Assembly: GCA_040754455.1 (NCBI GenBank)
Contig: JBFMCP010000003.1
Coordinates: 32,001-96,000, forward strand
Origin: Nitrospirota bacterium
GTDB taxonomy: Bacteria; Nitrospirota; Thermodesulfovibrionia; Thermodesulfovibrionales; Dissulfurispiraceae
Direction of reading: 5' to 3'
Length of the DNA: 64,000 nt
Position 1 is the stretch's first letter. The number at the start of each line of letters is the position of its first letter. The position numbers and the translations under genes are program-made. Under the pieces are notes generated by a model. It did no database searches, was not told the DNA's origin, and was given only the letters and a program-made list of their open reading frames with translations. Below are positions 3,012 to 54,212 of the stretch, in pieces.

Positions 3012-3132
3012 TTCAGTAAGTTTTAGTGTTCCTGTATGCTTTAGATCTTATAACAAAGAGAGACGTAAAGTTTTTTATATTAGCATGAAACTGGTGGGAA
3101 TTCAATAAGTAATGGTAGAATAACATTGAATC

Positions 3133-9173: not shown

Positions 9174-10412
9174 TCAGTAGATGGGATGCTTATCGCAGAG
9201 CTGCTTTACCCGTTTGTTCATATCGGTGATGACCGAAGGGGCGTCGATGTTCTTGATGACCGTTGCAATAATGTCCGCTATTTCATCCATCTCCGCTTCA
9301 CCCATGCCCCGTGTCGTCACACACGGAGTCCCGAGCCGTATGCCGCTTGTGATAGTCGGCGGCTTGGTATCATGGGGAATCGCATTCTTGTTCGCCGTAA
9401 TACCTGCCCTGTCCAGGGCTTCTTCCGCATCCTTCCCTGTCACATTCATGTTGGTCAGATCGACCAGCATCAGGTGGTTATCGGTGCCGCCGGAGATGAT
9501 GGTGAAGCCGCGCTCGATCAGGCCCTCAGCAAGCCTCTTTGCATTGCTCACAATCCTTTTCTGATACTCCTTGAACTCCGGGCTCAATGCCTCTTTGAAC
9601 GCCACCGCCTTCGCTGCAATGACGTGGACAAGAGGGCCTCCCTGAATGCCGGGGAAGATCGCCTTATCGACCGCCTTTGCAAAGTCCGCTTTGCACATGA
9701 TCATGCCGCCCCTCGGTCCCCTCAGGGTCTTATGCGTCGTTGTTGTAACAAAATCGGCGTATGCAACCGGCGAGGGATGCTGGCCTGCGGCAATTAATCC
9801 TGCGATATGCGCGATATCCGCGAGCAAATAGGCTCCCACCTCTTTGGCGATATCGGAAAATGCCTTGAAATCGATCGTGCGTGAATAGGCGCTTGCACCG
9901 ACAACGATCATTTTCGGCCGGTACTGACGCGCCGCAGCTTTTACTTCGTCCATATCCAGATAGCCGGTCGCTCTATTGACCCCATACGATACACAATTAT
10001 AGAGCATGCCGGTGAAATTGACCGATGCGCCGTGCGAGAGGTGGCCGCCGTGGGCCAGGCTCATCCCGAGAATAGTGTCGCCCGGTTTCAGGCAGGAGAA
10101 ATAGGCCGCCATGTTCGCCTGGCTGCCGGAATGAGGCTGAACGTTGACATGGTCCGCGCCGAAGAGCTCCTTTGCCCTCTCGATAGCACGCTGTTCGACG
10201 ACGTCGGCATACTCGCAGCCGCCGTAGTAGCGCCTGCCGGGATATCCCTCAGCGTACTTGTTCGTCAGCACCGACCCCTGGGCCTCAAGGACTGCGTTGC
10301 TCACGTAGTTCTCCGAAGCGATGAGGAGTATCTTGTTCTGCTCCCGCACTTTTTCATTCTGGATCGCCTCGTAGACTTCAGGGTCAGCCGACTTGAGATG
10401 CTCGAAATTCAT
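9174..10412 (-). CDS. glyA: serine hydroxymethyltransferase
   Basis: [37 protein letters not shown]. Confidence 0.98.
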
Positions 10413-13629: not shown

Positions 13630-14409
13630 ATGAAAATAGCTGTTACCGGGAAGGGCGGCGTCGGCAAGACCACACTCTCTGCAGTATTGAGCCACCTCTT
13701 TGCAGCAGAGGGCAAAAAGGTGATTGCTGTTGACGCAGACCCTGACGCGAACCTTGCTCAAGCGCTTGGTATCGCATTGTCCGATATCGAACATATACGG
13801 CCCATTGCCGAGATGGACGAGCTCATCGAGGAGCGGACCGGCGCAACGCCCGGCGCGCCGGGCGGCATGTTCAAGCTCAATCCGAGAGTCGACGACATAC
13901 CGCAAGAGGTCGGATTCAGAATCGGCGGCATTACGCTCCTGATCATGGGCAAATCAAAAGCCGCAGCCTCCGGCTGCTACTGCCCCGAGCATGTCTTCCT
14001 GCGGCGACTGCTCAAACATCTGATCGCCGAGCGGGATGAGGTGATTGTTGTCGACATGGAGGCCGGGATTGAGCACCTCACGAGAGGCACTGCAGAGGCA
14101 GTCGATGCTTTCATTGTGGTCGTGGAGCCAGGACAACGGAGCGTCCAGACCGCCAACACTGTACGTGAAATGGCAAAAGGGCTCGGCGTCAAGAAAGTCT
14201 TTGTGGTCGCCAATAAGGTGAGAGATGATAATGACGTTGCCTTTCTGAAAGAGCATATCAAAGACCTGGAAATCCTGGGTGCCATGAAATTCAACCAGGC
14301 CGTCATGGATGCCGATGTACAGGGCATCTCCCCTTTTGAAACCCCCGCTATTGTCGAAGACGTCAAAGCGATAAAACAGAAGCTTGAGAGCGCCTTAGGA
14401 ACTGATTAG
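13630..14409 (+). CDS. cooC: CO dehydrogenase/ACS nickel-insertion ATPase CooC/AcsF
   Basis: GKGGVGKT, DADPDANL, GCYCPE, DMEAGIEHL. Confidence 0.92.
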   Translation: MKIAVTGKGGVGKTTLSAVLSHLFAAEGKKVIAVDADPDANLAQALGIALSDIEHIRPIAEMDELIEERTGATPGAPGGMFKLNPRVDDIPQEVGFRIGGITLLIMGKSKAAASGCYCPEHVFLRRLLKHLIAERDEVIVVDMEAGIEHLTRGTAEAVDAFIVVVEPGQRSVQTANTVREMAKGLGVKKVFVVANKVRDDNDVAFLKEHIKDLEILGAMKFNQAVMDADVQGISPFETPAIVEDVKAIKQKLESALGTD

Positions 14410-16720: not shown

Positions 16721-17326
16721 ATGTCGACAACTGCGTTGAAGTACGAACCTGCACGAACCCAATCACTTCTGCAGGAGATCATGGAGCGCTCCGGCCAGAA
16801 CCTGCGTGCTTGCTATCAGTGCCGCCGTTGCGCAGCAGGTTGTCCGGTAGGGGATGAAACAAAGGGTGTTACTCCCGACCGGCTGATCCGGATGATCGTG
16901 CTCGGCGATGAGGAAGGGGTCCTCAACAATCTCCTCACCTGGAAATGCGTTTCCTGCTACACCTGCGGCACACGCTGCCCGAACAATATCCAGACCGCTC
17001 GCATCAATGAAACTCTGAAGCACATCGCCAAAGAAAAGCACAGTCAGCCGCTGCTCCCCAAGGTGGCCTCATTCCACGATGCCTTTATGAAATCGGCCTC
17101 GCACTTCGGCCGCTTCAACGAAGTGGAGTTCATGGGCCTGTATCAACTGCAAAATGCAAAGCAGGGCGGGCTGAAAGGGATTATTGAGGAAGTGAAGAGC
17201 GCCTCCCGATTGGGGATAGCAATGATGAACAAGAAGAGAATGCACTTCAGTCTGGCAAAGGTCAAGAAGCTCTCCGAGGTGAAGAGCCTGTATAAAAAGT
17301 CAAAGGAAAAGGGTGCGGGCCACTAA
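16721..17326 (+). CDS. hdrC: heterodisulfide reductase subunit C-like, 2x[4Fe-4S]
   Basis: CYQCRRCAAGCP and CVSCYTCGTRCP. Confidence 0.9.
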   Translation: MSTTALKYEPARTQSLLQEIMERSGQNLRACYQCRRCAAGCPVGDETKGVTPDRLIRMIVLGDEEGVLNNLLTWKCVSCYTCGTRCPNNIQTARINETLKHIAKEKHSQPLLPKVASFHDAFMKSASHFGRFNEVEFMGLYQLQNAKQGGLKGIIEEVKSASRLGIAMMNKKRMHFSLAKVKKLSEVKSLYKKSKEKGAGH

Positions 17327-17358
17327 TGGTTTGCAACTCCAATAAATAGGGGTTTTTT

Positions 17359-18237
17359 ATGGTAGAAATAGCGTACTATCCCGGTTGTACCTTACATGCT
17401 TCCTCGGAGCTCTACGATGTGCAGTGCAAGGCGGTGCTCGGGAAGCTGGGGATTGAGCTCAAAGAGCTCGAGGACTGGAACTGCTGCGGCGCCACCTCGG
17501 CAGCCAAGACGGATGAGTTCCTCTCCATCGCCCTCCCCGCCCGCAATTTGGGCATCGCCGATGCCAGCGGGTATTCGGAAATGGTCATTCCCTGCTCCTC
17601 CTGCTACAGCAGGACCCTTGTATCGCAGAAGAGATTGCTCGAAGATCCTGAGTTGAAAAATACTATAAATGCCGAGCTCAGCCTGAAAGTCCAGGGGAAG
17701 ACAAAAATCCGGAGCATTCTTGAGATCCTTATTCCCAAAGCAGCATCCGGTGAACTTACTGAGAAAGCAGCGAAAAAACTCGAAGGATTGCAGCCTGCCT
17801 GCTACTACGGCTGTCTTCTGACCCGTTTCCCTGTTGATCTGGACGTCCCCGACAATGTCGAGAACCCGCAGGGAATGGAGGTCATCTGCAAGGCGATCGG
17901 AGCAAAGCCGCTCGACTGGAGCTTCAAGACCGATTGCTGCGGCGCTGCCGCCTCGGTCAATGATACCGACACCTCACTCTTTCTGATGTCCAGAATTATG
18001 AAGGATGCTATCGCACGCGGCGCCAACTGTTTTGTCACTACCTGCCCGATGTGCCAGTTCAACCTGGATGCCTATCAGGACCAGGTGAGAGCAAAATACG
18101 GCATCTCGCAGCAGCTGCCTGTCTACTTCATTACCGAGCTGATCGGTGTTGCCATGGGCATCAGCCCCCAAGCACTCCAGATCGACAGGCACTTTGTTGA
18201 TGCAATGGGACTGTTAAAGGAGTTGAAACTGCTATGA
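17359..18237 (+). CDS. hdrB: heterodisulfide reductase subunit B-like (two CCG domains)
   Basis: YYPGC/NCCGA/PCSSC and YYGC/DCCGA/TCPMC. Confidence 0.92.
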   Translation: MVEIAYYPGCTLHASSELYDVQCKAVLGKLGIELKELEDWNCCGATSAAKTDEFLSIALPARNLGIADASGYSEMVIPCSSCYSRTLVSQKRLLEDPELKNTINAELSLKVQGKTKIRSILEILIPKAASGELTEKAAKKLEGLQPACYYGCLLTRFPVDLDVPDNVENPQGMEVICKAIGAKPLDWSFKTDCCGAAASVNDTDTSLFLMSRIMKDAIARGANCFVTTCPMCQFNLDAYQDQVRAKYGISQQLPVYFITELIGVAMGISPQALQIDRHFVDAMGLLKELKLL

Positions 18238-21200
18238 GTACGAAACCTTCATCCAATAAACGCGGTTCTGTTTTGATTGTCGGCGGCGGTATCGGTTCGA
18301 TGCAGGCCGCCCTTGACCTCGCTGACAGCGGATTCAAGGTGCATCTGGTCCAGAAAGACCCTTCAATCGGCGGAACGATGGTTATGCTGGACAAGACCTT
18401 CCCTACCGGCGATTGCGCAATGTGTATGATCTCGCCCAAGATGGTCGAGGTAGGCAGGCATCTGAACATTGAAATCCACACCCTTGCCGAGGTGACCTCT
18501 GTCGAAGGAGAACCCGGCAACTACAAAGCAAAGATTAAGCTCGCTCCCCGCTATGTCGATCCCGACAAGTGTACGGGATGCGGTGACTGCGAGGCAAAAT
18601 GTCCCAAAAAGGTGACGAGCGAATTCGAGCAGGGTCTTGCAAAGCGCAAGGCCATCTACTCGCTTTTCGCCCAGGCAGTGCCGAATACAAGGGCGATCGA
18701 CGCAACCCAGTGTCTTTTCCTCACGAAAGGCACGTGCAAAAGCTGCCAGAAGGTCTGTAAGGCAGGCGCGATCAATTACGAGGATAAGGGTAAAGAGATC
18801 GAGGTCAATGTCGGCGCGGTCATCCTCGCACCCGGCCTAGACCGCTACAATGCAACGGTGAGAGGCGAGCTCGGTCTCGGGCGCTGGCCCAATGTAGTCT
18901 CATCCATCCAATTCGAGCGCATTCTCTCCGCTTCCGGTCCCTACAAGGGAGAAGTAAAACGTCCCTCTGACGAAAAGCATCCGCACAAGGTCGCCTGGAT
19001 ACAGTGTGTAGGCTCCAGAGATTCCCATAATGCCAATCCCTGGTGTTCCTCAGTCTGCTGCATGTACGCAACCAAGCAGGCCATTATCGCAAAAGAACAT
19101 GACAAGCGCATCGAGCCCACCATCTTCTACATGGAGATGAGGGCCTTTGGAAAAGATTTCGACAAGTATGTGGAGAGGGCAAAGAAAGAATACGGCGTAC
19201 GGTATCAGCGCGCCATGATCTCCGCGGTCCGGGAAGAGCCCGGGACCGGCAACCTGATCATGCGTTACGCTGCGGAAGACGGAACACTGATCGATGAGAC
19301 CTTCGATATGGTGGTCCTCTCCGTTGGTCTCGAGCCGCACAAGAATGCCGACGAGTTCGCCAAGACCTTCGGCATCGAGACCAATGCCTACAAGTTTGCA
19401 AAGACATCCCCGCTCCTTCCTGTGCGGACCAGCAAAGAGGGCATCTTTGTCACCGGCACCTACCAGGGACCGAAAGATATCCCTGAGACGGTAATGCAGG
19501 GAAGCGCGGTCGCCGGAGAAGCCATGGCCCTCCTCGGCGAGGTACGCGGCACCGAGACGATGAAAAAAGAGCTGCCGCCTGAAAGAGATGTCGCCAACGA
19601 AGAGCCGAGGATCGGCGTCTTCGTCTGTCATTGCGGCATCAATATCGCTTCCACCGTCGACATCGAGAAGGTGGTCGAAGAGGCGAAGCGACTTCCCGGC
19701 GTTGTGTATGCAACCAACACCATTTATGCCTGTGCGCAGGATAACCAGGAAGTCATCAAACAGACGATCAGAGACCAGAAACTGAACAGAGTCGTTGTCG
19801 CCTCGTGTACGCCGAGGACCCATGAGCCGCTCTTCCAGGAGACCATCCGTGATGCCGGACTGAACAAGTATCTCTTCGATCTGGCCGACATCCGTGAGCA
19901 ATGCTCCTGGTGCCACATGGGCAAGAAGGACGAAGCGACAAAGAAGGCGAAACAGATCGTCAAGATGTCGGTCGCCAAATCGCGGCTCCAGAAGCCGATC
20001 CAGACCGACACGGTCGGCGTCACCCCTGCCTGCATGATCATCGGCGGCGGTGTGGCAGGCATGACCTCTGCTCTTGCACTGGCCGATCAGGGCTTCGATG
20101 TCCACCTTGTCGAGAAAGAGAACGAGCTGGGCGGACTGGTCAGGAATCTTCACCGAACTCTTGAGGGAAGCGATGTCCAGGGATTCCTGAAGCAGAGGAT
20201 CGAGGCGGTAAAGAGCCACCCGCGCATCAAGGTGTATACCGGCGCTGAGGTGAAAAAGACCGAGGGCTTTGTCGGCAACTTCAAGACTTCGCTTACCGAT
20301 GGCTCCTCGTTCGATCACGGCACCATCATCCTGGCCACCGGCGGTGTCGAGTATGAGCCTACCGAATATCTCTATAAAGAAAGTGATAGAGTTATCACTC
20401 AGCGTGAGCTGGAGAAGAAGATCGCTGCCGGTGAGGCAGCAACGACCAGCGAATCCTTTGTCATGATCCAATGTGTGGGTTCCCGTGAAGAGCCGAACCA
20501 GTACTGCTCCCGCATCTGCTGCCAGGATGCGGTCAAGAACGCCATCGCCATCAAGGAAAAGAACCCGGATGCGCAGGTGGTCATTCTCTACAGGGATATT
20601 CGCACCTACGGACTGCGTGAAGATTATTATAAGAAGGCACGCGAACTAGGCGTGCTCTTTGTCCGCTATGACGTGGACAGGAAACCGGTGGTCGAAAAAG
20701 CAGGCGACCGGCTGCAGATCAAGACCTGGGACTACATGCTGAATAAAGAGCTGGTGCTCGATGCGGATTGGGCAGTACTTTCTACCGGCCTCAGACCGCA
20801 CCCGACGACCGATCAGGTCGGCGAGATGTACAAAGTCACCCGCAACCCCGACGGCTACTTCCTTGAGGCCCATGTGAAACTTCGCCCGGTGGACTTTCCG
20901 AGCGAGGGCATCTTCGTCGCCGGTCTCGCCCATGCGCCCAAGAACCTGGATGAGACGATCACCCAGGCGCTGGCTGCCGCAGGCCGCGCAGGCGTGGTCC
21001 TGTCCCATGAGCGGCTGGCGGTTTCGGGAATCATCGCAAAACACCGGAGAGAGCTCTGCATGTCCTGTCTCAGCTGCTTCAGGGTATGTCCCTTCGACTC
21101 GCCCTATATTGCTGAGGACGGCAAGGTATCTCATAACGAAGTCAAGTGCATGGGATGCGGCATCTGTGCAGGCATCTGCCCTGCAAAGGCGTTCCAGGTG

Positions 21201-21284
21201 AACAACTTCCGGGATGACATGATCCTGGCGATGATCGATGCGGCAGCCGAGTGTGAACCGGCTGCGGCTTCGGAGAGCAAATAA
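18234..21284 (+). CDS. hdrA: large HdrA-like FAD/Fe-S protein with two FAD modules
   Basis: GGGIG and GGGVAG Rossmann motifs, DKTFPTGDC, two QCVGSR..CS.(V/I)CC motifs, RIGVFVCHCG, internal and C-terminal ferredoxin motifs. Confidence 0.92.
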   Translation: MSTKPSSNKRGSVLIVGGGIGSMQAALDLADSGFKVHLVQKDPSIGGTMVMLDKTFPTGDCAMCMISPKMVEVGRHLNIEIHTLAEVTSVEGEPGNYKAKIKLAPRYVDPDKCTGCGDCEAKCPKKVTSEFEQGLAKRKAIYSLFAQAVPNTRAIDATQCLFLTKGTCKSCQKVCKAGAINYEDKGKEIEVNVGAVILAPGLDRYNATVRGELGLGRWPNVVSSIQFERILSASGPYKGEVKRPSDEKHPHKVAWIQCVGSRDSHNANPWCSSVCCMYATKQAIIAKEHDKRIEPTIFYMEMRAFGKDFDKYVERAKKEYGVRYQRAMISAVREEPGTGNLIMRYAAEDGTLIDETFDMVVLSVGLEPHKNADEFAKTFGIETNAYKFAKTSPLLPVRTSKEGIFVTGTYQGPKDIPETVMQGSAVAGEAMALLGEVRGTETMKKELPPERDVANEEPRIGVFVCHCGINIASTVDIEKVVEEAKRLPGVVYATNTIYACAQDNQEVIKQTIRDQKLNRVVVASCTPRTHEPLFQETIRDAGLNKYLFDLADIREQCSWCHMGKKDEATKKAKQIVKMSVAKSRLQKPIQTDTVGVTPACMIIGGGVAGMTSALALADQGFDVHLVEKENELGGLVRNLHRTLEGSDVQGFLKQRIEAVKSHPRIKVYTGAEVKKTEGFVGNFKTSLTDGSSFDHGTIILATGGVEYEPTEYLYKESDRVITQRELEKKIAAGEAATTSESFVMIQCVGSREEPNQYCSRICCQDAVKNAIAIKEKNPDAQVVILYRDIRTYGLREDYYKKARELGVLFVRYDVDRKPVVEKAGDRLQIKTWDYMLNKELVLDADWAVLSTGLRPHPTTDQVGEMYKVTRNPDGYFLEAHVKLRPVDFPSEGIFVAGLAHAPKNLDETITQALAAAGRAGVVLSHERLAVSGIIAKHRRELCMSCLSCFRVCPFDSPYIAEDGKVSHNEVKCMGCGICAGICPAKAFQVNNFRDDMILAMIDAAAECEPAAASESK

Positions 21285-21338
21285 TAAAATGGTGTTGAAT
21301 GCTGACGGCATTCAGCCTTGATAGAGGAGGATTGAGTA

Positions 21339-21857
21339 ATGAGTAACGTCGCGGAGTCAACGGAACAGGCTGCGGTCTCTTCCATCGAGAAGCCGCACGA
21401 GACGCCGCAGGGATGGGAGCCGAATGTGCTTGCATTCGCCTGTCACTACTGCGCGTTCGCTGCAGCGGATCTGGCCGGGGTCATGAGGCTCTCCTATCCG
21501 TCGAATGTGAAGGTCGTCCGGCTCCCATGCACCGGCAAGCTGGACCATGCCTATGTCCTGCGGGCCTTTGAAAAGGGCGTGGACGGCGTGTTCGTGGCCG
21601 GCTGACTTAAGGGGCAATGTCATTACCTGGAAGGTAATTCATTCGCAGCAAGAAGAATCAAATACATAAAAAATCTACTGGCCAAAGTGGGCATCGATCC
21701 TGCTCGTCTCGAGATGTACAACCTCTCCGCGGCAATGGGACCGAGGTGGGCGGAAATCTGTACGGAGTTTACCGAGAAGATTCGCAAGCTCGGCCCCTCG
21801 CCGGTGAGAGCTGCATTGTGCGGGTACAACGGATCGAAAAGGAGTGAACGGAAATGA
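21339..21857 (+). CDS. mvhD: MvhD-like [2Fe-2S] subunit, probable selenoprotein (TGA 21603-21605 read as Sec); 172 aa
   Basis: FACHYC, LPCTGK, then VFVAG-TGA-LKGQCHYLEGN...GIDPARLEMYNLSAAMGPRWAEICTEFTEKIRKLGPSP in the same frame up to TGA 21855-57, which overlaps the metV ATG. Confidence 0.9.
21614..21646 (+). promoter_or_regulatory. bacterial SECIS-like hairpin
   Basis: ATTACCT-GGA-AGGTAAT (21622-21638), a perfect 7-bp stem with G-starting loop about 24 nt after the TGA; the lower AATG/CATT pairing extends it. Confidence 0.7.
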
Positions 21858-22546
21858 TAGTCGGCACACAGAAGCCTTTTGAAGAAATCTGGGAAATGGT
21901 CAGGGGCACGAAAAGAGTCATGATCCTGGGCTGTAACACCTGCGTAGCGATCTGCCACGCCGGAGGCAGCAAAGAGGCGGAGATCATCGCCTCGATGCTC
22001 AGGATAAAGGCAACCCAGGAAGGCGTTGCCATGGAGGTCAACCACAATGGTATCGAACGGCAGTGCGAGCCCGAGTTCTTCGAGCCGGTCATGGAACAGC
22101 TCAGGTCCCACGATCTCGTGGTCTCCACCGCCTGCGGTGTGGGAGTGAACTTTCTTTCCGAGAGGATCGGCAATGTGCCGGTATATCCCGGCGTCAACAC
22201 CTCGTTCTACGGAGCAGTACCGCAGGCAGGTGTTTTCAAGGAGCTGTGTGCCGGCTGCGGCAACTGCATCCTCCACCTCACCGGCGGGATATGCCCGATC
22301 GCACGCTGCTCGAAATCGCTCATGAACGGGCCCTGCGGCGGCACCAATAACGGCAAATGCGAGATCAGCCAGGAAGTGGATTGCGGCTGGTATCTGATCG
22401 TCGAGAGGATGAAAAAGCTCGGCACGCTGGAGAAGCTGTACGAGGTGCAGCCTCCGAGGAACTGGTCCACGGGGCTCTACGGCGGGCCGCGCCGGGTGGT
22501 GTTGCAGCACATCCAGGATCTCGAAGATCAGGAAGAAAAGAAATAG
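21854..22546 (+). CDS. metV: methylene-THF reductase accessory Fe-S/Zn subunit MetV
   Basis: GCNTCVAIC, RQCE, ACGVG, CAGCGNC..GGICPIARCSKSLMNGPCGG..GKCE..CGW. Confidence 0.9.
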   Translation: MIVGTQKPFEEIWEMVRGTKRVMILGCNTCVAICHAGGSKEAEIIASMLRIKATQEGVAMEVNHNGIERQCEPEFFEPVMEQLRSHDLVVSTACGVGVNFLSERIGNVPVYPGVNTSFYGAVPQAGVFKELCAGCGNCILHLTGGICPIARCSKSLMNGPCGGTNNGKCEISQEVDCGWYLIVERMKKLGTLEKLYEVQPPRNWSTGLYGGPRRVVLQHIQDLEDQEEKK

Positions 22547-22565
22547 GGCGGGAGGAAAATAGACA

Positions 22566-23543
22566 ATGAAAAGCGGAAGCAACCTTGAAAGAGTCATTGC
22601 AAGCGGAAAACCTGCGGTAACGGCCGAGCTGGGCCCGCCCATGAGCGCCGACCCGCACGAAGTCATAAAAAAAGCTCGGCTGCTCAAAGGCACCTGTGAT
22701 GCGGCAAACATCACCGATTGCCAGACCGCAGTGGTGCGTATATCGAGCATCGCTGCAGCAGTCATTGCACTGAGAGAGGGTCTCGAGCCGGTCATGCAGA
22801 TGACCTGCCGTGATCGCAACCGGATCGCCATGCAGGCCGACCTGCTCGGCGCAGCAGCTCTGGGCTTGAAAAACTGCCTGTGCATCGCCGGTGACCACCA
22901 GTCCTTCAGCGCAGCAGGAAGACTGAAAGGCCATCCGGGCGCCAAGAACGTCTATGATGTGGATTCCATACAGCTCGTCGGCATTTTAAAGAAGATGCGC
23001 GATGAAGGCCTGCAGGAAGGCGGCGACAAGATCGAGGTGCCTCCCAAGTTCTTCATCGGCGCGGCCTTCACCCCCGGCGGCGAGCCCCTGGACTTCCGCC
23101 CCTACCGTCTGAAAAAGAAGGTGGATGCGGGCGCGGACTTTATCCAGACACAGGGTATCTATGACGTAGAGCAGTTCAAGAAACAGATGGAGATCGTAAG
23201 AAATCTCGGACTCCATGAGCGGACAGCGATCCTCGGCGGCATTATCGTTCCCAAGAGCGCAATGATGCTCAAGTACATGGATTCCTCTGTTGCGGGCGTC
23301 AGCGTTCCTAAGCCTCTGATTGAGCGAATGCTCAAGGCCAAGGAGTCTGCCGGTGACGATAAAAAGAAACAGAAAGAGGCGCAGGAAGCCGAGGGTATCA
23401 AGATCGCCGTCGAGCTGATCCAGCAGGTCCTCGAAATCCCCGGCATCAAAGGCGTACACATCCAGGCAATCGAGTGGGAAAGCGCCATGGAGGGCATCGT
23501 CAAGGCCGCTGGCCTCTGGCCGCGGCCCACTTTTAACGATTAA
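22566..23543 (+). CDS. metF: methylenetetrahydrofolate reductase
   Basis: TAELGPP, ANITD, QMTCRDRNRIAMQ, AGDH, KKVDAGADFIQTQ. Confidence 0.95.
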   Translation: MKSGSNLERVIASGKPAVTAELGPPMSADPHEVIKKARLLKGTCDAANITDCQTAVVRISSIAAAVIALREGLEPVMQMTCRDRNRIAMQADLLGAAALGLKNCLCIAGDHQSFSAAGRLKGHPGAKNVYDVDSIQLVGILKKMRDEGLQEGGDKIEVPPKFFIGAAFTPGGEPLDFRPYRLKKKVDAGADFIQTQGIYDVEQFKKQMEIVRNLGLHERTAILGGIIVPKSAMMLKYMDSSVAGVSVPKPLIERMLKAKESAGDDKKKQKEAQEAEGIKIAVELIQQVLEIPGIKGVHIQAIEWESAMEGIVKAAGLWPRPTFND

Positions 23544-23753: not shown

Positions 23754-24965
23754 ATGGCGACAACGTTTAAATGGTCGGGAAAAACATTGCAGGGTGTAGT
23801 AAAGAGCGGTGAAATGGCTGCCAGCAGCAGGGACGAACTCATCTCTTTGCTGAGAAGACAGGGCATCATCCCGACGGTGATAAATGAGAAGAAAGGCGGA
23901 AAAGCAGCCGGAGGGAAAAAGAAAAAGATCACCGATAAAGACCTGGTCGTCTTCACCCGCCAGTTCGCCACGATGTTTACTGCAGGTATCCCTATTGTGC
24001 AAGGTCTGGATATCCTCTCAAAACAGACAGAAAACAGGTCGCTCGGGATTGTTATTGCCGAGATAAAAAATGATGTCGAGACCGGAACCACCCTTGCCGA
24101 TGCGCTGAAAAAACATAAAAAGATCTTCGATGATCTTTATATACACCTGGTAGCTGCCGGTGAAGCGGGCGGTGTGCTCGACAACGTGCTTCTCAGGCTG
24201 GCAGGATATATCGAGAAGGCGATGAAGCTGAAGAAGAAAGTCAAAGGCGCCATGATTTATCCAAGCATCGTTATTTCGGTCGCCGTGCTTGTGATCTCAA
24301 TTATTATGGTTTTTGTTATTCCGATATTTGCAAAAATATTTACTGAAATGGGTGCCAAATTGCCCGCACCGACACAAAGCGTCATATGGCTGAGCAGCTT
24401 TCTTGGCGGCATCGGAGGCGTCATTATACTCCTTGGAATCATTGCGACAATTTTCGGCATCAGACAATACCGTCGGACAGAGGCCGGCAGGAAAAAAACA
24501 GACCGAATCTTTCTTAAGATGCCTATCATAGGCGACCTTTTGAGGAAGGTTGCTGTAGCACGGTTTACACGAACACTGGGAACCCTCCTCAGCAGCGGCG
24601 TGCCCATACTCGATGGTCTCGACATCTGCGCTAAATCTTCAGGGAATAAGGTCGTCGAAGAGGTCGTCTTTGGAGTCAAGAAGGAGGTAGCTTCAGGGAA
24701 AACTGTTGCAGAGCCTCTTTCTAAATCACCCGTCTTCCCTCCCATGGTCTGTCAGATGATCAACGTAGGTGAATCCACCGGTGCACTCGATGCGATGCTT
24801 GTTAAAATAGCTGATTTTTATGATGATGAAGTGGACAACGCCGTAGCCAACCTTACGACCATGCTTGAGCCCATGCTGATGGTATTTTTGGGAACCACTA
24901 TCGGTTATATCGTCATCGCCCTGTATCTGCCTATCTTCAAGATGGGAGAAGTCATAGGGAAGTAA
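23754..24965 (+). CDS. pilC: type IV pilus platform protein PilC
   Basis: FTRQFATM, AGEAGGVLD, KVKGAMIYP, GESTGALD, ALYLPIF. Confidence 0.95.
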   Translation: MATTFKWSGKTLQGVVKSGEMAASSRDELISLLRRQGIIPTVINEKKGGKAAGGKKKKITDKDLVVFTRQFATMFTAGIPIVQGLDILSKQTENRSLGIVIAEIKNDVETGTTLADALKKHKKIFDDLYIHLVAAGEAGGVLDNVLLRLAGYIEKAMKLKKKVKGAMIYPSIVISVAVLVISIIMVFVIPIFAKIFTEMGAKLPAPTQSVIWLSSFLGGIGGVIILLGIIATIFGIRQYRRTEAGRKKTDRIFLKMPIIGDLLRKVAVARFTRTLGTLLSSGVPILDGLDICAKSSGNKVVEEVVFGVKKEVASGKTVAEPLSKSPVFPPMVCQMINVGESTGALDAMLVKIADFYDDEVDNAVANLTTMLEPMLMVFLGTTIGYIVIALYLPIFKMGEVIGK

Positions 24966-24981
24966 GAATACGTCGTAGTTC

Positions 24982-26325
24982 TTACTTCTCACCTTTATAC
25001 TTTGAGAGCCTATATCTGAACTCCCTGAATGATAGCCCTAAAAGCTCTGCCGCCTTTGTCTTTACACCATTTGCCTTTTCAAGCGCCTTATTAAGAAAGT
25101 CTTTTTCCATAGTACAAAGGTATTCGTTCAGGTTTATTCCCTCATCAGGGAAATCAGTCGAAAAGTGATTCTGTGGTACTGACGGAGGACAGGAAGTACA
25201 CTTAAGCAGTCCATTTTCGGAAAGGATGATCTCCCGCTCTATAATGTTTTTCAGTTCCCTTACATTGCCTCGCAGATCGTGATGCATTATGTAGTCGATA
25301 AAGGCCGGGTCAATCTTCGTTATCTCTTTCTGAAATTTCTTGGAGAGCACCTTTACAAAGTGATCGATGAGCAAAGGGATATCTTCCTTTCTCTCTCTCA
25401 AAGAGGGGAGCCGTATCTCGAAGGTCGAGAGCCGGTAGTACAGGTCCTCTCTGAACTCTCCTTTTGCGGATGACTCATTAAGGGACTTGTTCGTTGCTGC
25501 AACAATCCTTACATCCACATCAATTTCACTGCTGCTGCCGAGGGGGCGTATCCTTTTGTCTTCGAGGAATCGCAACAGTTTTGCCTGGAGTGAAAGCGGC
25601 ATTTCGCCGATTTCATCGAGAAAAAGCGTACCGCTGTTCGCTTCTTCAATAAGGCCCCTTTTGGAGGTATACGCACCGGTAAAGGAACCTTTCGCATACC
25701 CGAACAGCTCACTCTCAAGAAGCTCTGCCGGAAGGCTTGCGCAATTTATTGCGACAAAAGGTTTGTCTGTCCGAACCCCTCTATTATGAATTGCTTTGGC
25801 CACAAGCTCCTTGCCCGTTCCGCTCTCGCCAATTAATAAAACATTGGTGTCGAAGGGCGCTATCTTCTCGATCATGTTAAAGACTCTTTTCATAGCCTCT
25901 GATTTGCCGATAATGCTCTGGTAGGCATCGGCATATTGCTGCAGCTCTCTGACTCTCTTCTGGAGAAGGATCTTCTCTTTGATGTTCTTCAGTACAACTC
26001 TTATTTCATCAAGATTAAAGGGTTTGGTGACGTAATCATATGCTCCGAGCTTCATTGCCGAGATGGCAGTTTCAGTAGAGGCAAAGGCGGTAACAATAAG
26101 TACAATGGTTTCGGGATGCTGTTCTTTTATGACTTTAAGCAGATCTATGCCAGAGCCGTCTCCGAGACGAAGATCTACGATGGCGATGTCAAAGTAGTGC
26201 TGACTGATCAGGCTATTTGCCTCACCGATACCCGAGGCTTCATTAACAACAAGGCCGCTTTCGGAAAGGAGGTGCTGCAATACCTTCCGTATATTCTGTT
26301 CATCATCGACAATGAGCGCACGCAT
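24982..26325 (-). CDS. pilR: sigma54 response regulator PilR
   Basis: REC domain, GESGTGKE, GSFTGA, HTH ending LSFREFRYRLSK; pilus locus context. Confidence 0.88.
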   Translation of the reverse strand: MRALIVDDEQNIRKVLQHLLSESGLVVNEASGIGEANSLISQHYFDIAIVDLRLGDGSGIDLLKVIKEQHPETIVLIVTAFASTETAISAMKLGAYDYVTKPFNLDEIRVVLKNIKEKILLQKRVRELQQYADAYQSIIGKSEAMKRVFNMIEKIAPFDTNVLLIGESGTGKELVAKAIHNRGVRTDKPFVAINCASLPAELLESELFGYAKGSFTGAYTSKRGLIEEANSGTLFLDEIGEMPLSLQAKLLRFLEDKRIRPLGSSSEIDVDVRIVAATNKSLNESSAKGEFREDLYYRLSTFEIRLPSLRERKEDIPLLIDHFVKVLSKKFQKEITKIDPAFIDYIMHHDLRGNVRELKNIIEREIILSENGLLKCTSCPPSVPQNHFSTDFPDEGINLNEYLCTMEKDFLNKALEKANGVKTKAAELLGLSFREFRYRLSKYKGEK

Positions 26326-26341
26326 GAGTATCCCTCCTTAT

Positions 26342-27511
26342 TTACTCCATGGGAAACATAATCGAGAACTTTGCTCCGCCGAGCGCGGACTTATCGACCA
26401 TGATAGTGCCGCCAAAGCTGGTGATCATCCTGTAGGCGATCGCAAGTCCCAGACCCGTGCCGGTCGCTTTTGTAGTAACAAAAGGCTCGAATATCTTGTC
26501 CCTCATATCTTCCTCTACGCCTGCCCCATCATCCTCGATATCGATAGCAACCCTCCTCTCACCCCCCCTTGCCGAAGGGGGGAGAGGGGGATTACTCCGT
26601 AGTGTCACTTTTATCTCGGATTTTGCAGCCTCAATGGAGTTCTTTATAACATTCCTTACGGCAACCTCCATGAATGTCCTGTTCGCAGTGATTGCCGCAT
26701 TTTCCTGTATATCAAAGATGATTTTTTTCCCACAGTCCGGAAGGTCGGCTGCATACTTTATAACCTCTGATAAATTCACGCTCTCCTTTGGAGCATCGGA
26801 GGGCCGCGAAAAGAGGAGAAAATCATTCACCAGAGTATTGAGCCGACTCGTCTCTGTGCAGAGCATTTCAACGAAGTCAGCCGCACTTTTGCCCTCCTTC
26901 AGGAATTGGGCGGCTGCTGTTATAGAGGCAAGGGGATTTCTTAACTCATGTGCCAGATCGGCGCTCACACGATAGAGTCGCTCATACCCCTGCATCTTGA
27001 TCCGCTCCTCTTCAAGCCGCTTGATGTACCGCTCCTGGTTCTCCATTCTCGTCTTCAGATAGTCACCGGCAAGCGCAATAAGGGAGAAAGCAAGGAAGTG
27101 CAGCAATATATTTAAAATGCTTTCTCTTTCCAGAATCATATTGCCGATATAGTACGTCGCAGCATAGAGAACGGTTGCACTGAGAGGAAAGAGCACCGTC
27201 TTTTTTGTCTCTATCAGCACCGAGCCGAAGAAAATAGGGAAAAGATAGAGGAGTGTCAGATAGGAATAGATCCCGAAGCTTAAGTACACCATTGCTGAAA
27301 TGAAAACAATGTCCAGGAGAAAGTCAAAATAATTTGCTTTTTCCGACCTGATCATAAGCCTCATGAGAACAATAGCGCAATAAATAATCAGTACATTTCG
27401 CAAGCTTGGATTTGCATAGGGAAGGCCTGCAATTTGAAAGGCAATGAGCAGGGTCAGCGCAAAGATAAATCGTCCGATCTTGTAGTAATTGAAATAAGAT
27501 GCCGAGTACAT
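26342..27511 (-). CDS. pilS: membrane sensor kinase PilS-like
   Basis: About 6 TM N-terminus, AHELRNPLASI, DDGAG, GTGLGL; divergent from pilA. Confidence 0.82.
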   Translation of the reverse strand: MYSASYFNYYKIGRFIFALTLLIAFQIAGLPYANPSLRNVLIIYCAIVLMRLMIRSEKANYFDFLLDIVFISAMVYLSFGIYSYLTLLYLFPIFFGSVLIETKKTVLFPLSATVLYAATYYIGNMILERESILNILLHFLAFSLIALAGDYLKTRMENQERYIKRLEEERIKMQGYERLYRVSADLAHELRNPLASITAAAQFLKEGKSAADFVEMLCTETSRLNTLVNDFLLFSRPSDAPKESVNLSEVIKYAADLPDCGKKIIFDIQENAAITANRTFMEVAVRNVIKNSIEAAKSEIKVTLRSNPPLPPSARGGERRVAIDIEDDGAGVEEDMRDKIFEPFVTTKATGTGLGLAIAYRMITSFGGTIMVDKSALGGAKFSIMFPME

Positions 27512-27520
27512 TTGGCCATT

Positions 27521-27549
27521 AGTCTAAGTTTATTGACAATTTTTGTCAA
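27521..27549 (-). promoter_or_regulatory. sigma70 promoter of pilSR
   Basis: Minus strand TTGACA-N17-TAGACT, 9 nt before the pilS ATG. Confidence 0.7.
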
Positions 27550-27555
27550 TAAACT
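27527..27555. promoter_or_regulatory. perfect 13-bp inverted repeat, candidate PilR enhancer
   Basis: AGTTTATTGACAA-ttt-TTGTCAATAAACT; weaker copy TGCCCATAATTGTCA just downstream. Confidence 0.65.
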
Positions 27556-27643
27556 GGTGCCCATAATTGTCAAACAGCACATCTTAGGCAGAACCTGAAA
27601 AAATATTTAGTTAAATTACAGAAACTTACTTAACCAAACATTC

Positions 27644-27659
27644 TGGCACAGAACATGCT
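27644..27659 (+). promoter_or_regulatory. sigma54 promoter of pilA
   Basis: TGGCACagaacATGCT (GG-N10-GC). Confidence 0.8.
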
Positions 27660-27757
27660 TTTAAAGAAGTGCTTGTGAACGCCGATAAAAAGTGGTGCTT
27701 CATGAGCGTATCGATCACCCGCCCTTGGCGGATACAGTGGGAAAAAGGAGGAATAAT

Positions 27758-28180
27758 ATGTTTAAGACTATTCACAAAATGCAGAGGGGAGACGAAAGAG
27801 GTTTCACGCTCGTCGAACTGCTCATCGTCATCGCAATCATTGCAATCCTCGCAGCGATCGCAATCCCGCAGTTTGCACAGTATCGGCAGAGAGGGATACG
27901 TGCAAGCATGGTATCTGATGCAAGAAACTGCGCTACAAACCTTGAGGCTTACTTCTCCGATAACCAAACCTATGCCGGTGCCGTAGTTGCAACTCAGTGT
28001 CCAGGCGTTAGTGGTAATAATGTTATTGCCCTGCCTACACTTACCGCAACTACTTATGCTATTACTGTTACCAATGCCGCTGCTGGTGCATTTAGCCCTG
28101 TCACATTAACAAATGATGCTAATGGAGATGGCACTGCTGGTGATGCAGGCTGTACTTGGGCTAATGGTCAAGCATGCTAA
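27758..28180 (+). CDS. pilA: type IVa major pilin
   Basis: AGGAGG RBS; prepilin site G|FTLVELLIVIAIIAILAAIAIPQF; followed by a terminator. Confidence 0.93.
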   Translation: MFKTIHKMQRGDERGFTLVELLIVIAIIAILAAIAIPQFAQYRQRGIRASMVSDARNCATNLEAYFSDNQTYAGAVVATQCPGVSGNNVIALPTLTATTYAITVTNAAAGAFSPVTLTNDANGDGTAGDAGCTWANGQAC

Positions 28181-28199
28181 TCGCAGTAAAATAGTTTAT

Positions 28200-28229
28200 A
28201 AAAAGGGGCGCAACATGCGCCCCTTTTTT
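28200..28229 (+). terminator. rho-independent terminator after pilA
   Basis: AAAAAGGGGCGCA-aca-TGCGCCCCTTTTTT. Confidence 0.9.
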
Positions 28230-28288
28230 AATAGTAACAATTCAAAATACTACAATCCATTGCAGTACTGTGCAACAGATTTCATATT

Positions 28289-28308
28289 TTGTGTAATAGA
28301 TTACACAA
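28289..28308. promoter_or_regulatory. perfect palindrome, candidate enhancer for the minor-pilin operon
   Basis: TTGTGTAAT-ag-ATTACACAA. Confidence 0.55.
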
Positions 28309-28368
28309 TGTGTCATCATGAATTGAAAGACACCCTTGAAAGTTCGTCCCAAAAAAAACATCCCCTGT

Positions 28369-28384
28369 TGGCATCTTACTTGCT
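28369..28384 (+). promoter_or_regulatory. sigma54 promoter of the minor-pilin operon
   Basis: TGGCATcttacTTGCT (GG 28370-71, GC 28382-83). Confidence 0.75.
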
Positions 28385-28409
28385 ATTTCCTTAGGTAATG
28401 AAAAGGTCT

Positions 28410-28913
28410 ATGAAACAAGAGAGACAAGATGGCTTTTCACTCGTTGAAGTCCTTATAACTATCGCAATTATCACCATTGTGCTAACAATCGCAATTCCTT
28501 CCTTCCAGGGGTATGCTATCAATAGAAATTTGAAGGCTGCAGCACGGAGTATCGAAAGCGACATTTTCGAGCTCAAAGAACGGGCGATAGCTGAAAACAG
28601 ACAATATAGAATGACCTTCACTGTCGGCACCGGCACCTATACCATTGATCAATGCACGGTGACAGGGTCTAGCTGTCCGGCCTGGCAGGCGCCTGTAGGC
28701 ATTCAGCAGAATAAAACACTCGCTTCTTTTGACAATAGTATAAACATTACCAGCGCAGCTTTTGCCGGCGGGGGCCCCACCGTCCTATTTCAAACAAGGG
28801 GGACCGTTAACGGGACTGGAGGAAGCGTTACTATTACCAACAGTCGTGGATCAAGCGCGGTGATAGCGGTCAATATTACAGGGAGGGCAAGTGTCAGGTT
28901 CGATCTGCAATAA
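28410..28913 (+). CDS. fimU: FimT/FimU (GspH-like) minor pilin
   Basis: G|FSLVEVLI prepilin motif; F..RG motif near the C-terminus; start 28410 preferred (28398 possible). Confidence 0.8.
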   Translation: MKQERQDGFSLVEVLITIAIITIVLTIAIPSFQGYAINRNLKAAARSIESDIFELKERAIAENRQYRMTFTVGTGTYTIDQCTVTGSSCPAWQAPVGIQQNKTLASFDNSINITSAAFAGGGPTVLFQTRGTVNGTGGSVTITNSRGSSAVIAVNITGRASVRFDLQ

Positions 28914-29346
28914 AAAAGGCCTCAGCATGATCGAGGTGCTCATTGCGCTGTTCCTCACCATGATCGGCGTGATGGCGCTCATCAGCATGCAGCCGCAGGG
29001 CTGGCTTCTTGCCGGAAAGTCCGATTATTTAGGCAGGGCATCCGAGCTCTTAATCAAGGAGCTCCAGAGAAATGAAACACTCATAATGAATCCTTGCAAT
29101 GCGGTTGCGGCAGGGACAACGAATCAGATCAGGTTTGCCAGCGGTCAGGCTGCTGCACAGCCTGGAGACGCGCAATTTAATGTGCAGACAACTATTGCTC
29201 CTTCGGCAATTACGGCGAACGCCTGGAATGTAACGGTAACCGTCACGTGGACCGGCAACCCCGTCGGCATCACTGAAAGCCTTGTAGTGACACGGCAGGA
29301 TGCCTATTGCCAGGGGTGCTCGATGGGCACTCCCTATTGTCCATAA
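28891..29346 (+). CDS. pilV: PilV-like minor pilin
   Basis: G|LSMIEVLIALF; position in operon. Confidence 0.75.
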   Translation: MSGSICNKKGLSMIEVLIALFLTMIGVMALISMQPQGWLLAGKSDYLGRASELLIKELQRNETLIMNPCNAVAAGTTNQIRFASGQAAAQPGDAQFNVQTTIAPSAITANAWNVTVTVTWTGNPVGITESLVVTRQDAYCQGCSMGTPYCP

Positions 29347-29358
29347 AAAGGACCTGTT

Positions 29359-30099
29359 ATGAAACGATTTGTTGATTCAAGAAAAGCTCTCTATCAAACA
29401 GGATTCACTCTCGTCGAGGTGCTGTTCGCCATTACCATCGGAGTGCTCCTGCTCGGAGCGATCTTTGTTGCTGTGCAATCAGGACAGCGGTCGTCTGTGG
29501 CGATCGAGAGCAAGGTAGCCACGCAGCAGGATGCAAGGGCTGCGCTCGCCATAATGGAAATGGAAATCGGCATGGCATCGTATAACGCCACTTTTGCTCC
29601 GGCTTCTATGTGGCTCAATCCTGCTGATTGCGCTGCTGCCGGCGTTGCTGCTAATAAAGGAATACAAGTTGCAACTGTAAACACGCTGACAGTAGAAATG
29701 GATACCAACGAGAACGGGAGCCTCGCTCCCGGCATTCCAGGGAATCAGAATGAAATAATCAGCTATGTGTACGACATACCAAATCAACGTCTTACCCGCT
29801 CGACGAATTGCGGAGGCGCACAAGAATTCCTTGGCTGCCTGGACGCAGACGGCAACGGACGCTGTGACAGCAACGAGTCTCTGAGGGCAACAAGGATCAT
29901 CAATAATACGCTCGGCATTCCAGTTTTCCAGTACTTTGATGCAACTGGCGCTACGACAGCAAACATTCCTGCCATAAGACGAATCGATATTACCCTTGCC
30001 GTACAGACAGACGAAATAGATCCCAACACAGGACAAAGAAGAACGATGATCTACTCAACCAGTGTTATCCCAAAGAACCATGCGATTTTCCAGAATTGA
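29359..30099 (+). CDS. pilW: PilW-like minor pilin
   Basis: G|FTLVEVL; C-terminal FQYFD...IRRIDITL...PKN. Confidence 0.78.
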   Translation: MKRFVDSRKALYQTGFTLVEVLFAITIGVLLLGAIFVAVQSGQRSSVAIESKVATQQDARAALAIMEMEIGMASYNATFAPASMWLNPADCAAAGVAANKGIQVATVNTLTVEMDTNENGSLAPGIPGNQNEIISYVYDIPNQRLTRSTNCGGAQEFLGCLDADGNGRCDSNESLRATRIINNTLGIPVFQYFDATGATTANIPAIRRIDITLAVQTDEIDPNTGQRRTMIYSTSVIPKNHAIFQN

Positions 30100-30109
30100 G
30101 GAGCCGCCT

Positions 30110-30607
30110 ATGAGGATTATCAAAAATAGAGAGGGCTTTGCCATGATTGCAGCACTCCTTGCCATTCTCATTCTCACGGCAGTAGGCGTGCTGGTCTTTA
30201 CGGTGACCACAAGGGACATAAGAATAAGCGCCAGAGTCACCGGAGAAAAGAAGGCCTTTTCCGCAACCGAAGCAGGGGTCCATCTGCTCATACAACAAAC
30301 GAATATCTTACAGGGCAATATCGCAGGCTATACGGTAAGTCCGGCCCAGCCCGTTAACACACTAAATGACCCTGACACCCGCTACTCCATTACCAATGCG
30401 AATCCGCCCTCTGGTGTGCCGGCGGCAGCAGCATACCCCGGCTATTCATTAAGCAGCGCGGGAGGCTCGCAATCGTGGGGGATGACGATTTTTAACAAAC
30501 GCGTCACAGGGATCAATACGCGATACAACAGCAACGTCGATGTTGATGTAGGGATCGGCTACGGGCCTGTTGAAATAAGCACTTCCCAGCCTGCAGCAGG
30601 TGGATAG
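30110..30607 (+). CDS. pilX: PilX-like minor pilin
   Basis: G|FAMIAALL with no Glu5, AFSATEAG; GAGGAG RBS. Confidence 0.78.
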   Translation: MRIIKNREGFAMIAALLAILILTAVGVLVFTVTTRDIRISARVTGEKKAFSATEAGVHLLIQQTNILQGNIAGYTVSPAQPVNTLNDPDTRYSITNANPPSGVPAAAAYPGYSLSSAGGSQSWGMTIFNKRVTGINTRYNSNVDVDVGIGYGPVEISTSQPAAGG

Positions 30608-30633
30608 CAGGCCTGCCATAAGGAGGTAGTATC

Positions 30634-53219: not shown

Positions 53220-53563
53220 CATTGCTTTAATACAGGCATGAAGATCAGAAAACGACTGGTCAGCTTCTGTGATATGGACGTAATGATTTGCCGTTGGAAA
53301 AGGGACGCAAAAGTTGCGCTGCGGCAGACAGTAAATCCCAGTGATAAAAATTGGTGGCAGTGCAGGGAGACGTATGTACCACTTTGTGCCTACTCCAGCT
53401 CACGGTAACACTTTGATTCTTATACCACTGACTCTCGTTCCAACTGTGAGTACGGCCAAATTTGTGATACAAACTGTGTCACAGTTTTTTTCAGTTTAAC
53501 CGGTTACACCGCCACCGTGTTAAGAGGCCGCTGCGACCTGTTTGACAACCTGCTTACCGCAGA

Positions 53564-53592
53564 TTGAAAATTATAACGTTATGAGTTATACT
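53564..53592 (+). promoter_or_regulatory. higBA sigma70 promoter with overlapping operator palindrome
   Basis: TTGAAA-N17-TATACT; TATAAC-N7-GTTATA (53572-53590); ATG 7 nt after the -10. Confidence 0.75.
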
Positions 53593-53599
53593 GTAACTG

Positions 53600-53881
53600 A
53601 TGATAGCGACCTTCGGAGACAAGGAAACGGAGCATCTTTATGTTACCGGTAAAAGCAGAAGGTTTCCTACTGCGGTATGTAAAGCAGGGCTACGGAAGCT
53701 CGATTATCTTAACTCGGCAACGCGCTTGGAAGATCTGAGGGTTCCACCAGGCAATTGTCTGGAAGCATTGAAAGGCAGCTATAAGGGATTTTACAGCATC
53801 AGAATCAACGACCAGTTCAGGATCGTCTTTCGGTTTGAGAATGCTGATGCTTACGATGTAAAAATCGAGGATTCTCATTAA
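53600..53881 (+). CDS. higB: HigB (RelE-like) toxin
   Basis: MIATFGDKETE..., DLRVPPGN.LE.LKG, YSIRINDQFRIVFRF. Confidence 0.92.
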   Translation: MIATFGDKETEHLYVTGKSRRFPTAVCKAGLRKLDYLNSATRLEDLRVPPGNCLEALKGSYKGFYSIRINDQFRIVFRFENADAYDVKIEDSH

Positions 53882-53894
53882 ACGCGAGGGCATT

Positions 53895-54212
53895 ATGATT
53901 GAAATCAAGAGAGAGCCGACGCATCCGGGGGAAATTCTTCAGGAGGAGTTCATCGCCCCTCTCGGGCTGACCCAGGCAGGACTTGCGGAAAAACTTAAGA
54001 CTACCTTCAGGACAGTCAACGAGATCGTTAACAAAAAGCGAAGCGTGAGCCCTGAAATGGCATTGAAGCTTGCAAAGCTCTTTGGAACATCACCGGAACT
54101 ATGGCTCAATCTTCAGAGCCAATATGACCTCTGGAAAGCAAAAGAAAAAGAGAAAGCCATTCTAGCCTCTATAAAGCCGCTAAAGCAGAGCGTTGCGACG
54201 TGCCGAAATTAA
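53895..54212 (+). CDS. higA: HigA antitoxin (HTH-XRE)
   Basis: PTHPGEILQEEF, MALKLAKLFGTSPELWLNLQ..YDLW. Confidence 0.93.
   Translation: MIEIKREPTHPGEILQEEFIAPLGLTQAGLAEKLKTTFRTVNEIVNKKRSVSPEMALKLAKLFGTSPELWLNLQSQYDLWKAKEKEKAILASIKPLKQSVATCRN

Follow-up and report, generated by a model that had tools for sequence, protein, structure and literature searches.

A UGA-interrupted mvhD gene with a SECIS-type hairpin in its coding sequence, read as a selenoprotein gene of an hdr-metVF cluster in a Nitrospirota bacterium

We assign a probability of roughly 0.92 to the reading that positions 21339-21857 of a 64,000-nucleotide stretch of Nitrospirota DNA (the whole of the DNA analysed, hereafter the window) form one gene, mvhD, which encodes a 172-residue MvhD-type [2Fe-2S] electron-transfer protein and in which codon 89, a UGA, is decoded as selenocysteine (Sec). 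The core of this reading, a selenoprotein MvhD with UGA at a cysteine of the cluster region and a SECIS hairpin lying within the coding sequence, is strongly supported, because the UGA is retained in 80 of 80 related loci, the frame downstream of it is conserved, the hairpin is either frozen or compensated at the nucleotide level, and its geometry fits the published model of bacterial SECIS (bSECIS) elements. The features of the locus and of the gene cluster around it are collected in Table 1.

Table 1. Positions of the mvhD gene, its decoding signals and the neighbouring cluster genes in the window
Feature	Position	Strand	Remarks
5-formyl-THF cyclo-ligase	14418		C1 cluster
GTP cyclohydrolase I	14992		C1 cluster
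folD	15599		C1 cluster
hdrC-like 4Fe-4S dicluster subunit	16721..17326	+	Pfam Fer4 families; NCBIfam HdrC models matched below cut-offs
hdrB-like CCG-domain subunit	17359..18237	+	Pfam CCG, two stretches; NCBIfam CoB_CoM_SS_B, E 9e-46, below cut-off
hdrA-like flavoprotein, 1016 aa	18234..21284	+	Pfam Pyr_redox_2, Fer4; NCBIfam HdrA2, E 1.9e-295, three stretches, below cut-off
Shine-Dalgarno-like GAGGAGG	21324..21330	+	8 nt 5' of mvhD ATG; direct sequence reading
mvhD-like gene	21339..21857	+	172 codons plus stop; in-frame UGA is codon 89
UGA, candidate Sec codon, residue 89	21603..21605	+	Replaces Cys of the G-C-x4-C-H-Y motif
Candidate SECIS core hairpin	21622..21638	+	7-bp stem of ATTACCT (21622-21628) with AGGTAAT (21632-21638); loop GGA (21629-21631); codons for H-Y-L-E-G-N
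AGGAG	21840..21844	+	9 nt 5' of metV ATG; direct sequence reading
metV	21854..22546	+	Pfam DUF5981 'Methylene-tetrahydrofolate reductase C terminal', E 2.9e-36; start codon overlapping the mvhD stop (ATGA)
metF, methylenetetrahydrofolate reductase	22566..23543	+	Pfam MTHFR, E 6.2e-36

In the list of open reading frames, the gene appears as an 88-codon ORF (21339-21605) that runs from ATG 21339 to TGA 21603-21605. Past this TGA the frame stays open for 83 further codons, up to a second TGA at 21855-21857 that overlaps the metV start codon at 21854 in the form ATGA. Translation with TGA as U yields a 172-aa product, residues 30-152 of which match the Pfam family FlpD (PF02662) over positions 1-123 of the 123-position profile (E 3.3e-48), scoring 163.2 bits against a curated cut-off of 22.3; MvhD and VhuD chains in the PDB match the same product with E values from 3.5e-42 to 3.8e-32. 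The frame and the complete FlpD domain confirm an earlier claim, made in the initial annotation of this DNA, that 83 more MvhD-like codons lead up to the overlap with metV. Against the NCBIfam model for VhuD (NF045873) the product reaches 148.2 bits, under the 215-bit cut-off, and it is therefore a VhuD homologue rather than VhuD proper. For annotation this means that mvhD should be called as one selenoprotein gene of 172 codons and not as an 88-aa fragment; standard gene callers either truncate it or render its TGA as Trp.

The UGA lies at a position of particular constraint. In an alignment of 18 full-length homologues, picked from the 120 listed of 5651 matches, five cysteines are invariant (C35, C38, C64, C89 and C94), and the mvhD UGA aligns with Cys89 of the G-C-x4-C-H-Y/F motif, a residue that is Cys in all 18 picked sequences. 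The proposal that the 88-aa ORF ends at TGA 21603 just where MvhD has the cysteine of its GC-x4-CHY motif is thus upheld by the cysteine-containing homologues. The conserved cysteine pattern of these proteins (C-x-x-C, P-C-T-G and G-C-x4-C) is found in the window protein with C35, C38, C64 and C94 in place and UGA at 89. Cysteine also occupies position 89 in the solved MvhD chains 7bkb_F and 5odc_D, and in Ilyobacter DNA the codon is TGT.

Genomic relatives were gathered by scanning species-representative genomes with two peptide patterns drawn from elsewhere in the protein; 579 relatives were confirmed in this way and the best 80 were kept. These 80 share 64-82% identity with the window protein; 20 are recorded as Nitrospirota and 46 as Thermodesulfobacteriota, the remainder falling in other groups or carrying no group name, and MAGs of Nitrospirales and Thermodesulfovibrionales stand nearest. 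At the codon aligned to position 89, each of the best 80 of the 579 relatives carries TGA, and Cys-codon forms are absent among them. Among the 120 database homologues listed of 5651, position 89 is printed as C in 117 and as W in 2 (P0015 and P0025) and is deleted in 1, and none of the 121 stored homologue sequences contains U or X or is identical to a fetched locus.

The second line of evidence is the hairpin. A perfect ATTACCT-GGA-AGGTAAT hairpin had been noted about 24 nt downstream of the UGA; it is indeed present, with its stem starting 16 nt and its loop 23 nt from the UGA, and it is kept in 81 of 81 sequences, that is, in the window and in the best 80 of the 579 relatives. This comparison used 75-nt stretches beginning 9 nt 5' of the UGA and ending 63 nt 3' of it; all 81 align gap-free, and RNAalifold predicts from them a single helix consisting of the same 7 pairs. 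Standard pairs fill 99.3% of the 567 pair cells, a figure that drops to 25.7-70.9% if the 3' side is shifted by 1-3 columns; the closing pair is U-G in 5 of the 81 sequences and lost in 3, and every loop begins with GG. A conserved lower SECIS helix was considered and rejected, as RNAalifold retains the 7-bp helix alone.

Because the hairpin is written into codons for a conserved peptide motif, that motif accounts for part of its nucleotide conservation, but not for the state of the synonymous sites. Within the hairpin, His95 is encoded by CAT and Leu97 by CTG in 81 of 81 sequences, and Asn100 by AAT in 80 of 81, while outside the hairpin in the same 81 genes these codons serve 57%, 35% and 51% of the respective residues. 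Position 96 is TAC in all 21 sequences with Tyr and TTC in all 60 with Phe (50% and 38% outside), and Gly99 uses only GGT or GGA, which outside the hairpin make up 16% and 21% of glycine codons. The flanking codons for Gly88, Leu90, Gly92, Cys94 and Asn102 show mixed usage across the 81 sequences. At pair 32:42 of the alignment the two bases are exchanged together, A-U (Tyr TAC with Gly GGT) in 21 sequences and U-A (Phe TTC with Gly GGA) in 60, with no mixed case. Since a single change on the protein tree, separating Nitrospirota from the rest, suffices to explain this distribution, the compensated swap counts as one evolutionary event and not as 21; the freezing of synonymous sites is the stronger argument for the hairpin. 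A distant Ilyobacter homologue, the sole Cys-type DNA compared and drawn from a plasmid collection, uses GGG and AAC where the hairpin codons would be, and no helix can form there, a contrast that, coming from one sequence, is weak as a Cys-type control. For RNA biology, the locus offers a clean case of a SECIS element written into the codons of a conserved peptide, in which the dual constraint is visible as frozen synonymous sites.

The published bSECIS consensus, as given in the legend to Fig. 2 of the 2026 review on prokaryotic selenoproteomes (PMC13188914), asks for an apical loop of 3-9 nt, an upper stem of 4-16 bp, at least one G in the first two loop positions, a UGA-to-loop spacing of 16-37 nt and a minimum free energy (MFE) of -7.5 kcal/mol or lower. 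The window hairpin has a loop of 3 nt (GGA), a stem of 7 bp, GG at the first two loop positions and a spacing of 23 nt, and the segment from the UGA to +45, hairpin included, has an MFE of -10.1 kcal/mol, so that the suggested likeness to bacterial SECIS elements with a G at the start of the loop extends to every published value. The 17-nt hairpin alone contributes -4.5 kcal/mol. Over the 81 sequences, -7.5 kcal/mol is reached with the hairpin enforced in 63 and missed in 18, and the unconstrained MFE fold contains the hairpin in 70 and lacks it in 11. Folding energy in the 76-nt region is no better than that of shuffled sequence (z 0.16), and 103 of 200 shuffles match or exceed its stability. 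A perfect stem of at least 7 bp with a 3-9 nt loop and a G in its first two positions, placed 16-37 nt downstream, follows 19 of the 2369 TGAs found on both strands of the window; the coincidence of such a hairpin with a TGA is thus uncommon by chance but not decisive, and the decisive evidence is comparative. Searches against Rfam gave no match over 21500-21760 at E values up to 10, and across the whole window at gathering thresholds they returned tRNA-Met only. Set beside bacterial SECIS elements of the E. coli fdhF type and the bSECISearch consensus, the structure is alike in being a stem-loop inside the coding sequence just 3' of the UGA, in its loop-start G and in a spacing within 16-37 nt, and it differs in its very small 3-nt GGA loop, its A/U-rich 7-bp stem, the absence of a conserved lower helix and the absence of an Rfam model match.

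A full-length product would also result if near-cognate decoding or suppression put Trp, Cys or Gly at the UGA, the hairpin doing no more than slow the ribosome. This explanation could appeal to the two database proteins that show W at position 89 and to the GGA loop, which is unlike the loop of the E. coli fdhF SECIS, and Sec insertion into the mvhD product is itself presumed here from sequence. The W entries are nonetheless best explained by TGA=Trp translation tables: P0025 is 92% identical to a locus that carries TGA (L055), and the Trp in both proteins is therefore probably the product of a gene caller using such a table. The genetic code of the window is not reassigned, because TGA ends 13 of its 55 listed genes (and 11 of the 44 of these with a Pfam match). 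At an invariant cysteine site, moreover, Cys and Sec are the only chemically sensible residues. The same position is Sec in VhuD, in a family listed as experimentally verified in PMC13188914, and one of the organisms with the TGA-bearing gene, Desulfosediminicola flagellatus, is credited with 43 known selenoprotein genes in the main text of PMC12013277. Taken together, we regard decoding as an amino acid other than Sec as very improbable.

A genuine stop at codon 89 would instead leave a split or decaying gene, made up of an 88-aa N-terminal fragment and a remnant that is either untranslated or separately started. Calling with translation table 11 gives just such a pair of ORFs, of 88 aa and 56 aa, the second beginning with GTG (21687-21857), and no Sec machinery accompanies the gene locally: selA, selB, selD and tRNA-Sec were not found within the 64-kb window, and tRNA-Sec was not found in loci L001-L040, 40 of the 80 related loci. 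Against a stop, all 80 loci (the best 80 of 579, from at least two phyla) share the TGA at this codon, and the sequence after it is free of frame shifts and of additional stops. Over 79 loci of the best 80 of 579, identity averages 71% (minimum 60%) for residues 90-152 and 86% for residues 30-88, and on this ground the part of mvhD 3' of the UGA is under purifying selection. The 88-aa fragment would, in addition, retain just three of the five invariant cysteines. The chance that the TGA acts as a true stop is accordingly slight in the extreme. A TGC or TGT, one base away from TGA, that was miscalled in sequencing or assembly is negligible as an explanation, for the TGA recurs at this codon in 80 independent assemblies (the best 80 of 579) and a SECIS-type hairpin accompanies it in all 80; conservation of both the TGA and the downstream sequence across these loci excludes assembly error and pseudogene alike.

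Read as a selenoprotein gene, mvhD of the window adds an unexceptional member to a selenoprotein family that is well known, and catalogues already list that family, this position of Sec and the orthologous group of the gene. The label 'hidden selenoprotein' in the initial annotation consequently holds in one sense only, that standard gene callers miss the gene; the family, the position and one orthologue were on record. MvhD/FrhD/VhuD (PF02662) appears among the experimentally verified prokaryotic selenoprotein families in Table 1 of PMC13188914. Zhang and Gladyshev (2007; PMC1976440) describe FrhD as the most abundant selenoprotein family in deltaproteobacterial symbionts and report two Sec residues in archaeal FrhD and one of the two in bacterial forms. 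In two further papers, the Desulfobacterium autotrophicum genome is given four Sec-containing mvhD genes, and Desulfococcus multivorans one, together with selA, selB and selD. Many bacterial members with G-U-x4-C are printed in file 1 of the deep-Sep supplement (2025; PMC12013277), where the entry 'delta subunit 3' equals, on by-eye comparison, the translation of our locus from D. flagellatus IMCC35005 (L049). In the solved Methanococcus maripaludis VhuD (chain 9sfi_K), X stands at the two residues that align with C38 and C89. The family listing, the X aligned to C89 and the L049 protein printed with U together substantiate the earlier statement that MvhD/VhuD selenoproteins exist. The portions consulted of PMC11385720, PMC12456013, PMC5947623, PMC7117923, PMC6019823 and PMC13326102 contain nothing on Sec in MvhD, and in a search of the MvhD/metV selenocysteine literature that was not exhaustive and covered its sources in part, we found no statement of a Sec-containing MvhD as a subunit of an hdr-metVF reductase, or of one in Nitrospirota.

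The window protein shares with FrhD, MvhD and VhuD (PF02662, COG1908) the same domain from end to end, in a family that associates with HdrA. Its Sec, in G-U-x4-C, corresponds to the second Sec of Methanococcus VhuD, which is X in 9sfi_K and U in the representative of deep-Sep file 3. It differs from Methanococcus VhuD in having one Sec rather than two, from archaeal VhuD in having its SECIS within the coding sequence where sources on the archaeal genes place it in the 3' UTR, and from VhuD generally in its downstream partners, which are MetV and MetF and not a [NiFe] hydrogenase. The D. flagellatus protein is 70% identical to that of the window, and its locus has the same TGA codon, the hairpin and the gene order hdrA-mvhD-metV-metF; it comes from another phylum, its hairpin is of the Phe TTC / Gly GGA form, and its metV starts 335 nt from the UGA as compared with 251 nt in the window.

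The genes around mvhD form a complete HdrABC-MvhD-MetVF set, arranged as hdrC-hdrB-hdrA-mvhD-metV-metF over positions 16721-23543. The Moorella thermoacetica HdrCBA-MvhD-MetVF complex (Mock et al. 2014, as cited in PMC5736913 and PMC6085437) consists of the same six genes in the same order; the window cluster differs from the Moorella reductase in its HdrA of 1016 aa, with HdrA2 matched in three stretches. Counting same-strand matches with more than 50% coverage among the best 80 of the 579 relatives, 71 have hdrA upstream of mvhD, while 77 have metV and 76 have metF downstream of it, and the misses are mostly short loci or contig ends at which the gene is cut off or partly matched. The distance of +251 nt from UGA to metV start is shared by the window and its nearest relatives (L001-L005 and L008-L009), and the ATGA overlap of mvhD and metV is real and common to these relatives. 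In the initial annotation it was proposed that low selenium could be polar on metV by way of such an overlap; translation of metV need not, however, be coupled to that of mvhD, because metV has an AGGAG of its own 9 nt before its ATG.

Under the established mechanism of bacterial Sec decoding, as set out in PMC13188914, the mRNA hairpin AUUACCU-GGA-AGGUAAU, 16 nt after the UGA, would act as a bacterial SECIS. It would bind SelB carrying GTP and Sec-tRNA(Sec) and bring them to the ribosome as the UGA enters the A site, and UGA89 would then be decoded as Sec by the SelB complex. From homology, the product would serve as a [2Fe-2S] adaptor between HdrA and a partner module; the literature describes [2Fe-2S] cluster binding for MvhD, VhuD and BamF.

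Which residues hold the cluster can be approached by elimination, the parts of the MvhD-type literature searched having yielded no naming of the ligating cysteines. In BamF-like long forms printed in the deep-Sep supplement, U stands at residue 19 in the motif C-x-x-U, a position that maps to C38 of the window protein. If C38 is the fifth, non-ligand cysteine, the four ligands would be C35, C64, Sec89 and C94, and on this reasoning we think it fairly probable, though well short of assured, that Sec89 is, as the initial annotation proposed, a ligand of the [2Fe-2S] cluster. BamF, of the class II benzoyl-CoA reductase of Geobacter metallireducens, is alike in being a Sec-containing MvhD-type [2Fe-2S] adaptor beside an HdrA-type flavoprotein. 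Its Sec19 is at another site, which is described as that of a Cys near the cluster and not a ligand, and which the long forms with U19 allow to be mapped to the second Cys of the N-terminal C-x-x-C; BamF is also more than 100 aa longer.

A dependence of the mvhD product on selenium would be plausible, because a product ending at residue 88 would be short of two of the five cysteine positions and unable to hold the cluster. Occurrence of the Sec form in hdr-metVF clusters of two phyla, at 80 of 80 loci (the best 80 of 579), suggests a selenium need of the methylene-THF reductase, a need that we did not find stated in the portion of the MvhD/metV selenocysteine literature covered. A tentative extension, to which we give somewhat less than even odds, is that in Nitrospirota and Thermodesulfobacteriota with hdrCBA-mvhD-metVF the methylene-THF reductase step of the Wood-Ljungdahl pathway may be obligately selenium-dependent, with a selenolate directly ligating the MvhD [2Fe-2S] cluster and tuning electron transfer to the bifurcating flavin. 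If this is true, C1 flux in the two groups would be controlled by the supply of selenium.

Several further features of the window and of the related loci were recorded. Six intergenic TGA read-through candidates were considered as other selenoprotein genes of the window and set aside, with no Pfam match at E values up to 0.01. A stretch of about 1.2 kb immediately 5' of the tRNA-Met gene (53409-54584) holds no ORF with a Pfam match, and a TGA read-through candidate within it, at 53693-54208 on the minus strand, has none either. The hdrA gene of the window has Cys, not Sec, at its C-A-M-C site. In the related clusters, the only other Sec candidate is the hdrA of a Thermodesulfobacteriota MAG (L078), with TGA (3061-3063) at the second Cys of D-C-A-M-C, a position that we take to be the known HdrA Sec site; further in-frame stops in neighbour genes of these loci were rejected as candidates, being mostly true gene ends, and the L078 TGA alone among them sits at a Cys. 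In a close Nitrospirota relative (L003), metV contains an in-frame TAG (7032-7034, aligned to Gln173) and hdrA contains adjacent TAG and TGA codons (3535-3540); errors of assembly, or decay, in this MAG are the likely cause.

The hdrA-like gene of the window (18234-21284, plus strand) contains two NAD_binding_8 / FAD_oxidored stretches, one in its first half and one at about residue 600. These, with the three HdrA2 stretches, suggest that an HdrA-type module has been duplicated, recalling the double HdrA fusion described for BamE. The folate and Hdr genes are flanked by a serine hydroxymethyltransferase gene (9174-10412, minus strand) and a gene for a CooC/MinD-type P-loop ATPase (13630-14409, plus strand), and these flanks fit a C1 island of the Wood-Ljungdahl type. 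Directly 3' of metF lies a type IV pilus block (23754-33621) that includes a PilC-like T2SSF protein, two prepilin-type N-methylation proteins and a 995-aa protein with a PilY1 domain, along with minus-strand genes for a PilS-like kinase and a sigma-54 response regulator; a T2SSF gene follows metF in several Nitrospirota relatives as well.
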